The notes below the pieces were generated by a model. It saw only the letters and a list, made by a program, of their open reading frames with translations. It made no database searches and was not told where the DNA came from. Position numbers and translations under genes: made by a program. Shown here one piece after another: positions 51,118 to 51,798 of a stretch of DNA of 64,000 nucleotides (within the stretch, counting starts at the first letter, position 1; each line of letters starts with the position of its first letter). Source of the stretch: Armatimonadota bacterium (lineage in GTDB: Bacteria; Armatimonadota; SYMT01). The stretch is from the NCBI GenBank assembly GCA_046292385.1, contig JBKBRF010000011.1, forward strand, positions 1 through 64,000. The letters are read 5' to 3'.

Positions 51118-51196
51118 GGCCGCCGGAGATCTGCTCTCCGCCGGCTCCGCTTGTCTCACCCAGCGCCCGCGCCTACCGGCGTGTGGGCGTGAGCGC
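51118..51196. repeat. Degenerate duplicate of the 3' end and terminator of the sugar dehydrogenase gene
   Basis: 51118-51148 matches 52015-52045 at 28/31; 51173-51196 reads ALTPTRR* versus RVTHTRR* at 52071-52094, at essentially the same offset. Confidence 0.7.
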
Positions 51197-51798
51197 TAAG
51201 AGCTGATCAGGCAGTCTTCCAAGGAGTAGGCCGTCACCACCGGACCCGGGCCTTCACCGGCCACTCCGCGGCTGTTGTTGGAGAGCTGGACGCACGCGCT
51301 GGGGCCGACTCGCCGTGCCGCCTCTCGCGCGGCCTGAACCGCGGGCAGCAGCAGGGCCACCAGCACGAAGCAGATCTCCGCCGGGCCGTCCCCGGTCAGG
51401 TCCCCGACCGCTACGTGGAGCTCCTGATCCTCGCGGATCAGCCAGAGCGAGCCGTCCACAAGCCGGCGGAACGTGATCTTCACGCCCTCACCGGGGCCGA
51501 GCGTGTCCTCAAACGTGGCGAGCAGATGACGGGGGAGTAGCCTGCCCTGGAACACGTAGGTCCCGCGCGACCTGTTCCGCGCCAGCGAGCCCGGTCCGCC
51601 CGCCGACTCTTCCGGTACAGGGTTGAAGTAGCTGAAGGTGAGCGACTGGCCCGGCATGATGATGCACGGACCGCACGCGCCCAGGTACTGCGGGCGCTTC
51701 ACCGCCGCCGCGGCCGGGTCACCGGCTGCCGCCACCACCGCCGCGCCCGCCAGTACCGCCGGCAGCACCGCGCGCCGGGAAATCGAATCGTCTGCCAT
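51196..51798 (-). CDS. Tat-exported hypothetical protein carrying FG-GAP-like, prepilin-like and Hcp-like short motifs
   Basis: GAGGAGG RBS; SRRAVL Tat signal; [39 protein letters not shown]. Confidence 0.8.
   Translation of the reverse strand: [200 protein letters not shown]

Follow-up and report, generated by a model that had tools for sequence, protein, structure and literature searches.

The DNA analysed here, referred to as the window, is a stretch of 64,000 nucleotides (nt) from an Armatimonadota bacterium (GenBank assembly GCA_046292385.1, contig JBKBRF010000011.1, positions 1 to 64,000), the reverse strand of which carries a gene coding for a small protein, hereafter P0001. This protein belongs, as a divergent member, to a rare family of small exported proteins that is not catalogued, and, judging by sequence comparison, the whole of it looks like a reduced and rearranged derivative of the pilin-like DUF1559 proteins. 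The open reading frame (ORF) occupies positions 51196..51816 when read from a TTG start, and the coding sequence of P0001 itself, 200 amino acids (aa) and a stop codon, occupies 51196..51798 with its ATG at 51798. It is preceded by the Shine-Dalgarno-like sequence GAGGAGGG (51807..51814), the GGAGG of which ends 9 nt before the ATG, and, about 130 nt upstream of the start, by a weak sigma-70-like promoter match TAGACA-17-CATGAT (51931..51959), this being one promoter-type site versus 0.1 expected in shuffled sequences and a consensus match alone. The product begins with a signal peptide with a hydrophobic core and an Ala-rich end (residues 1-33, 51700..51798), which contains the twin-arginine sequence S-R-R-A-V-L (residues 7-12, 51763-51780), followed by a scaffold assigned as beta-rich from family alignments and AlphaFold2 (AF2) modelling (residues 34-130, 51409..51699) and by a leaderless, truncated DUF1559 N-terminal module delimited with hhalign (residues 131-197, 51208..51408). 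Smaller features are an FG-GAP-like peptide at the aligned place of the prepilin G-FTLIE site (residues 129-138, 51385..51414), a pilin alpha-1-type segment of 23 aa (51310..51378), the sequence ACVQLSNN, which by its alignment columns is the counterpart of the DUF1559 QCxNN box (51274..51297), and a C-terminal 10-aa peptide, the diverged counterpart of LPFIEQDN / LLPFIEQ (residues 191-200, 51199..51228). The 200-aa ORF, its ribosome-binding site, SRRAVL and three peptides (the FG-GAP-like one, 19 aa of the alpha-1 segment at residues 145-163, 51310-51366, and the C-terminal one) had been described previously in a sequence-only reading as a mosaic of three unrelated families, and all of them were found where that reading had placed them.

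P0001 is a genuine gene, since codon periodicity is confined to its ORF and strain variants are concentrated at third codon positions. The genome contains 7.04 Mb with 69% G+C, and the G+C content by codon position is 0.72/0.53/0.86 in the P0001 ORF and 0.67/0.50/0.95 and 0.68/0.50/0.93 in neighbour genes, with the third-position excess limited to the ORF and beginning and stopping at its ends. Near-identical DNA was found in soil, root and rhizosphere metagenome runs from several studies, and 39 listed variant places were read from four metagenome runs, of which 28 are at third, seven at second and four at first codon positions (binomial p 1e-6); taken singly, 27 of the variants are synonymous and 12 non-synonymous, and the gene is by all appearances under purifying selection. 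A depth spike at 51316-51369, present in all four runs, is attributed to reads from DUF1559 genes of other organisms because the sequences at its two loose ends are ...ELLVVIAII and RRSQCVNNLK; without this stretch 25 of 34 variants are at third positions. Uncovered parts of the stretch, and runs that share few words with it, were left out of account. There is also a metatranscriptome contig of 344 nt spanning 51525-51823 with 20 differences, a weak hint that the gene of a related strain is transcribed, DNA carry-over being possible.

No match to P0001 was found in Pfam or NCBIfam at E<=10, a word-index search of 5.8 billion proteins retrieved only P0001 itself, a single-protein search in 61 related genomes gave noise-level matches (next best E 0.0018), tblastn revealed no paralogue in its own genome (next best E 0.36), and a related-locus search with P0001 as the query resulted in 114 pattern matches, none of them confirmed. 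A phmmer search of 1.84 billion representatives gave 16 matches at E<=1e-3, six of which, namely P0002, P0003, P0004, P0005, P0007 and P0009, are full-length small proteins (E 2.4e-30 to 7.1e-8), including the 185-aa P0002 with 45% identity over P0001 residues 1-200 (E 2.4e-30) and P0003 (E 1.2e-15). Because a locus search with the full-length family alignment was dominated by canonical DUF1559 genes of Planctomycetota (283 confirmed, 80 kept), a profile made of the scaffold only (A2, N-terminal 140 residues) was used in its place. It retrieved 15 proteins of 176-224 aa, 11 of them new, and recovered P0001 at 2.9e-46; those with a stated source all come from metagenome collections, and four are labelled 'hypothetical protein', the rest being unnamed. 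Against 401 genomes of the same phylum, A2 matched eight at E<=1e-3, of which five were accepted: the present genome (G000), G358 (6e-16), G001 (2e-8), G002 (3e-7) and G340 (5e-7, cut by a contig end). G002 carries a second family copy with 75% nucleotide identity to the first. The matches in G238, G274 and G320 (E about 6-7e-4) were rejected: they cover model positions 5-50 alone, lie in frames of 431, 510 and 203 aa, respectively, and look like signal-peptide likeness, one of them being in a multicopper-oxidase-like frame.

Altogether the family includes 18 database proteins of 171-224 aa and genes in five of the 401 same-phylum genomes. The set compared below consists of P0001-P0009, P0017-P0027 and the genes in G358, G001, G002 and G340; motifs are counted over the 21 members of its alignment A3, and homologues over the 20 without P0001. 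P0001 shows the family pattern over its full length, that is, the signal peptide, G-P, G-x-T-L...F-x-P, P-G-x-G...D-G and then the hydrophobic LLLPAVQ segment. The conserved scaffold points in alignments A1-A3 are G43, P44, F58, P60, G103, G105 and D115-G116, P152 is invariant in the 21-member alignment, and I142, L146, L149, L150, P152, A153, V154 and Q155 are invariant in a 7-member alignment. The family is new in that no curated family covers its members, and it is a small, exported, leaderless derivative of a known one, the pilin-like DUF1559 family. In the published literature, no paper text containing LLPAVQ was found, nor, among the titles listed for DUF1559 or H-X9-DG/prepilin, any paper on internal modules.

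The relation to DUF1559 was established with a reference set of 56 canonical proteins of 266-438 aa from Planctomycetota loci, the consensus of which includes ...LLPFLEQ...ITDGTSNTI...HPGGVNFLFADGSVRF.... When the 21-member family was compared with this set by hhalign, family columns 123-184, corresponding to P0001 residues 131-197, matched DUF1559 columns 12-102 (98.9%, E 1.8e-17) in an alignment collinear with the first ~100 DUF1559 positions, the stretch between the QCxNN and LLPFIEQ boxes being deleted in the family. The boxes of the DUF1559 front end follow in the same order, namely alpha-1 LLLPAVQ..RE, which reads ...IIAILIGLLLPAVQ(K/A)(V/A)RE... in the family tail as it does in DUF1559, then QCxNN and LLP(F/Y)IEQ. 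P0001 has an exact first box, C-VQLS-NN as the second and a degenerate third (YSLEDCL). Exact QC[SA]NN occurs in four of the 21 members, and LP[FY][IV]EQ in 13, always ending 0-6 residues from the C-terminus. In 20 of the 21 members, 11-50 residues are covered by exact 5-mers that at least two of the 56 references also contain (20 residues, 144-163, in P0001; none in the G001 homologue), the shuffled mean being 1.3.

Because the alignment is collinear across both of them, the 'pilin helix' and the terminal 'Hcp-like' peptide belong to opposite ends of a single truncated DUF1559 front end and are not signatures of unrelated families. The Hcp likeness is accordingly set aside: P0001 has no Pfam or NCBIfam match at E<=10 (PF05638), and the peptide aligns with the LPFIEQDN end of the family. 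The FG-GAP likeness did not survive either, as neither PF01839 nor PF13517 matches P0001 at E<=10, the motif is present at this place in one of 20 homologues (P0004), it occurs in a single copy, and no propeller was modelled; its chance level is also considerable, with GD..GDG having 99 matches and the strict core five in the six-frame translation of the genome.

Outside this family, the canonical setting of the pilin-type peptide is next to a prepilin leader: 84 of 85 motif copies in 79 Planctomycetota loci follow a G/A-FTL[IV]E leader, the last being truncated where the locus stops. The P0001 genome, translated in six frames, has 33 matches to the pattern L[LF]P[AV][VIF][QA].ARE, 32 of which are in prepilin-type genes and the 33rd in the P0001 ORF, and the 8-letter version peculiar to P0001 occurs once, in the same ORF. 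No leader with a G/A-F-T-L-I/V-E cleavage/methylation site was found in any of the 21 members, in agreement with the earlier description of an out-of-context helix with no GFTLIE site in P0001. P0001 itself matches neither PF07963 nor TIGR02532 at E<=10. Genome-wide, PF07963 gives 64 matches, none at the P0001 ORF, and PF07596 gives 43, none on the contig of the window; P0001 also lacks a His at the H-X9-DG position. Since 84 of the 85 Planctomycetota copies follow a leader, a pilin helix far from the N-terminus and devoid of a cleavage site is unusual. The genome has one prepilin peptidase gene, and because the G/A-FTLIE site is absent, the peptidase presumably cannot process the family proteins, which would then not enter a pilus as normal subunits. 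As a side observation, the N-termini of the own-genome DUF1559 proteins examined all read ILFPVFAQARE(A/K)AR, and the LLLPAVQKVREAA variant is found in addition in G006 and G002, relatives from the same family.

The family thus resembles DUF1559 (PF07596 SBP_bac_10 with PF07963 N_methyl; TIGR04294) in the boxes of its tail and in ADGSVRF, kept by many members, and DGTSNT, kept by some. It differs in having no prepilin leader, in having the module at the C-terminus, preceded by a signal of class-I type (Tat/Sec) and then by a beta-rich body, in ending the module after LPFIEQDN, and in its length of 170-220 aa as opposed to 266-438 aa in the 56 references.

That other proteins carry the same out-of-context peptides, as the sequence-only reading had anticipated, holds for the family members and also for six long proteins, P0010-P0015 (376-5053 aa). 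These provide a second setting, unrelated to the small family, of the leaderless pilin alpha-1 peptide. Their repeat unit consists of RTX-like G-x-G-x-D turns followed by (V/I)LIGLLLPAVQKVREAAAR, with 5-8 copies in each of P0011-P0015, and they start with a ...LD(E/D)R(I/L)CLS... motif. Against Pfam and NCBIfam they gave spurious sub-threshold matches alone, and a locus search with P0011 resulted in 149 pattern matches with none confirmed.

Export of the family is supported by the conserved signal peptide seen in the alignments. The use of the twin-arginine translocation (Tat) pathway, which had been proposed for P0001, is plausible given that [ST]RR is present in 17 of the 21 members, P0001 with its S-R-R-A-V-L included, and that one TatC gene was found in the genome; in four distant members the signal has no RR pair. 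The Tat signal models TIGR01409 and PF10518 gave no match to P0001 and matched two of the 21 members below the cut-off (best E 0.036).

AF2 modelling of the single sequence was uninformative (predicted local distance difference test, pLDDT, 40.5), and the model used was built from the 21-sequence alignment A3 (mean pLDDT 71, predicted template modelling score 0.64). In this model mature P0001 is all-beta, with strands between residues 37 and 133 and a pLDDT of 64-91 per 10-residue block over residues 41-130. Foldseek found no match in the PDB at E<=1e-3 (best E 1.9e-3), and the ESM Atlas gave no usable feature match, the structure matches resting on a poor model. A VIA fold search listed 1nc7 (Z 8.7), the lectin module of Streptococcus sanguinis PilC (Z 8.0) and galectins (7.6), a range which the tool calls common, so the likeness of the scaffold to galectin/jelly-roll folds may be regarded as borderline at the level of the model. 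PilC (PDB 7oa7/7oa8) is comparable in combining a pilin element with a lectin-type beta-sandwich, and the P0001 model superimposes on its lectin module with a root mean square deviation of 3.2 A over 101 residues, with the reservation that Z 8 is common for unrelated models. Unlike the family, PilC has its pilin part first and a true prepilin leader, the order being reversed here.

Several Tat-dependent proteins of Escherichia coli, such as hydrogenase small subunits, are tail-anchored, combining a twin-arginine signal with a single hydrophobic segment near the C-terminus. A similar arrangement is seen in 10 of the 21 family members, in which basic residues follow an uncharged run of transmembrane grade (18-21 residues, Kyte-Doolittle mean over 19 residues 2.15-3.23). 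In contrast to the E. coli proteins, P0001 is borderline, with an uncharged run of 13 residues and a 19-residue mean of 1.92, four members (G358, G001, G002 and P0027) have no such segment, and the family has no cofactor-binding domain. To judge by hydropathy, a subgroup may thus have a membrane tether, which would not be a feature of the whole family. The predicted complex of mature P0001 with an own-genome DUF1559 protein scored 0.00 versus a mark of 0.32, which is evidence neither way.

The resemblance to DUF1559 is not limited to the C-terminal module. LPAVQ recurs near residue 60, as ...FQFFLPAVQRG; it is found in 17 of the 21 members, with at least two copies in 11; DGSVR, within ADGSVRF, is found in 12 members, P0001 not being among them, and DGTSNT in two. 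When compared with DUF1559, the scaffold gave a match of 14 columns to the C-terminal part (P 7.5e-4; reversed control 0.11) and one of 26 columns to the N-terminal part (P 1.5e-3; reversed control 0.49). The G002 pair has four local matches, of which alpha-1, DGTSNTI and DGSV keep the canonical order, LLPYIEQDN having moved to the end. One of the four LPAVQ copies of P0020 stands in place of the terminal LPFIEQDN (...YVIPFLPAVQFTGGV), and two are 5 residues apart (FFLPAVQSTANLPAVQ).

Taken together, the family is probably a genuine rare family of exported proteins, kept by selection, whose building material is DUF1559 sequence that has been reduced and rearranged. In place of the prepilin leader there would be an ordinary signal peptide of the Tat or Sec type; it would be followed by a beta-rich body of ~100 aa, bearing in most members the relics LPAVQ and PG.G...ADGSVRF, and last by a leaderless DUF1559 front end (alpha-1 IIAILIGLLLPAVQKVR, QCSNN, LPFIEQDN) truncated right after its last box. 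Along the protein, the order of the relics would then correspond to a DUF1559 unit to which the beginning of another has been added. As DUF1559 genes commonly lie in tandem, the simplest origin would be that tandem neighbours fused, exchanged the leader for an ordinary signal peptide and shrank; in this genome there are four such genes on contig C13 (6203-10193) and three on C2 (151627-152983), and the genomes with a family member that were checked have 30-76 DUF1559 matches each. After export, the body may fold as a beta-sandwich, with the pilin-derived hydrophobic segment either buried in the fold, as in the P0001 model, or serving as a membrane tether in the subgroup with 18-21-residue runs, and the retained boxes might keep contact with whatever partner they serve in true DUF1559 proteins.

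Several observations weigh against this interpretation. In the AF2 model, residues 140-149 form a beta-sandwich strand and not a pilin helix (block pLDDT 81-85, with a mean of 85 for residues 141-150), and residues 151-200 are of low confidence (pLDDT 51-63). None of the 21 members reaches the gathering score of PF07596, two matching below the cut-off (best E 0.011, 16.2 vs 23.3 bits), and TIGR04294 (H-X9-DG) likewise matches four members below the cut-off (best E 0.0099) and P0001 not at all. The likeness of the scaffold to DUF1559 consists of short motif-level matches of 14 and 26 columns and does not amount to a domain-level alignment. The order of the relics is of limited value, as three segments fit a tandem template half the time by chance, and in P0009 DGTSNT lies between the alpha-1 segment and LPFIEQ, which is a non-canonical order. 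The G001 homologue has the scaffold and no DUF1559 motifs (0 residues covered), and given this motif-free homologue the family could also have acquired its motifs secondarily. No longer or fused forms of the family scaffold were found, which is weak evidence, and no gene neighbourhood was found to be shared by this genome, G001 and G358, so no partner gene is suggested.

An alternative already raised for P0001 is that the DUF1559 peptides are functional motifs for a partner such as an assembly platform, chaperone or protease, displayed on an exported scaffold to bind it, titrate it or be recruited by it. In its favour, selection maintains the peptides as protein sequence, LP[FY][IV]EQ has a tag-like position at the very C-terminus, and LIGLLLPAVQKVREAAAR stands after G-x-G-x-D turns in the multiple copies of the unrelated P0011-P0015. 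Nevertheless, there is no known partner and no conserved neighbour gene, P0001 has lost or blurred several of the boxes and the G001 homologue all of them, and shared ancestry together with a structural role explains the retention equally well, which leaves a docking or decoy function unlikely. It is about as doubtful that LLLPAVQKVREAA, DGSVRF and LPFIEQDN are portable recognition motifs for an envelope factor, with the family and the RTX-like repeat proteins acting as adaptors, decoys or regulators of the DUF1559 system.

The sequence-only reading had favoured patching. In its recurrent form, stretches of abundant DUF1559 genes would be copied repeatedly into an unrelated exported scaffold through gene conversion or template switching, producing variable motif slots. 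Some features do have the look of it. The motif sets differ within one taxonomic family, G000 having alpha-1/REAARR alone, G001 none, and G002 carrying AIIAILIGL immediately behind the signal peptide, ITDGTSNTI, and LLPYIEQDN at its end. Tandem motif copies occur, such as LLLPAVQSLLPAVQ in P0003, LLPAVQLPAVQ and a doubled DGSVR in G358, the four LPAVQ of P0020 and two DGTSNT in P0009, and the motifs are letter-perfect consensus sequences between flanks devoid of DUF1559 similarity. Against this, no DNA tract shared with DUF1559 genes of the same genome was found in G000, G358 or G002: short-word BLASTN of the P0001 ORF against its own genome gave chance-level matches of 14-28 nt, none at a motif, and the G358 and G002 genes share no tract of more than 28 nt with their own genomes, save for the G002 paralogue. 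There is no donor of the LLLPAVQ type in G000 either, since the sequence in its 43 DUF1559 genes is ILFPVFAQARE, and LLPAVQ turned up only twice in the six-frame translation. The main motifs occupy the same, fixed alignment columns in most members, in a module collinear with DUF1559, and not swappable slots, an outcome that the sequence-only reading had itself named as refuting it. The G002 paralogues have 120 of 172 residues identical, 66 of these with identical codons, and AIIAILIGL is conserved in the protein with only three of nine codons identical, which indicates, at least for this pair of sequences, selection on the peptide and not recent DNA copying. Older conversion events could still have contributed, the DNA sequences being few, yet as an account of the family patching is quite improbable. 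That P0001 is a DUF1559 pseudogene in decay, or that its ORF is spurious and lies in a G+C-rich spacer, as might be thought from the long chance ORFs common at 69% G+C and from the absence of Pfam and NCBIfam matches, can be dismissed as highly improbable in view of the codon periodicity confined to the ORF, the third-position bias of the variants, the intact full-length homologues in many samples, the weak hint from the RNA-library contig and a three-frame reading of both-strand spacers that revealed no further DUF1559 remains.

In the window, the P0001 gene sits between a convergent gene coding for a GH78 alpha-L-rhamnosidase (47971-50856, plus strand) and a glucose/sorbosone-dehydrogenase-type gene (52071-53429, minus strand). 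For one neighbour gene, the closest relatives belong to several phyla, an Abditibacteriaceae genome ranking first. The homologue in G001 is accompanied by a PSCyt/PSD1-DUF1501 pair and a GFO/IDH/MocA oxidoreductase, and that in G358 by a glucose-6-phosphate dehydrogenase and a short-chain dehydrogenase. Further along the window, a second rhamnosidase-type gene (46037-47668, minus strand) is divergently placed with respect to the first; the gene at 47971-50856 codes for a full GH78 protein with five domains, and the one at 46037-47668 is shorter and has the six-hairpin and C-terminal domains alone. Together with a glycosyltransferase gene at 44042-45805, the two point to a small locus related to rhamnose. 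Downstream of the G001 homologue (contig C98, locus ~450-1370) there is an intergenic array of repeated ~100-nt units around a masked run of N, reading as near-identical peptides in several frames (...SFNAKTPRRRGAKG...).

P0001 may serve as a worked example of an ORFan resolved by an exhaustive hidden Markov model search followed by profile-profile comparison. DUF1559/H-X9-DG proteins are among the largest gene families without an assigned function in Planctomycetota and their relatives, and this genome alone has 43 of their genes. A small family which keeps only the boxes most conserved in these proteins and can presumably be neither cleaved nor polymerised would be a natural dissection of the DUF1559 protein, showing which of its parts are selected on their own, and its members would be compact constructs of soluble size for finding the partners of the boxes. 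If true, the recognition-motif reading would bear on the large unexplained DUF1559 system of Planctomycetota, Verrucomicrobiota and Armatimonadota.

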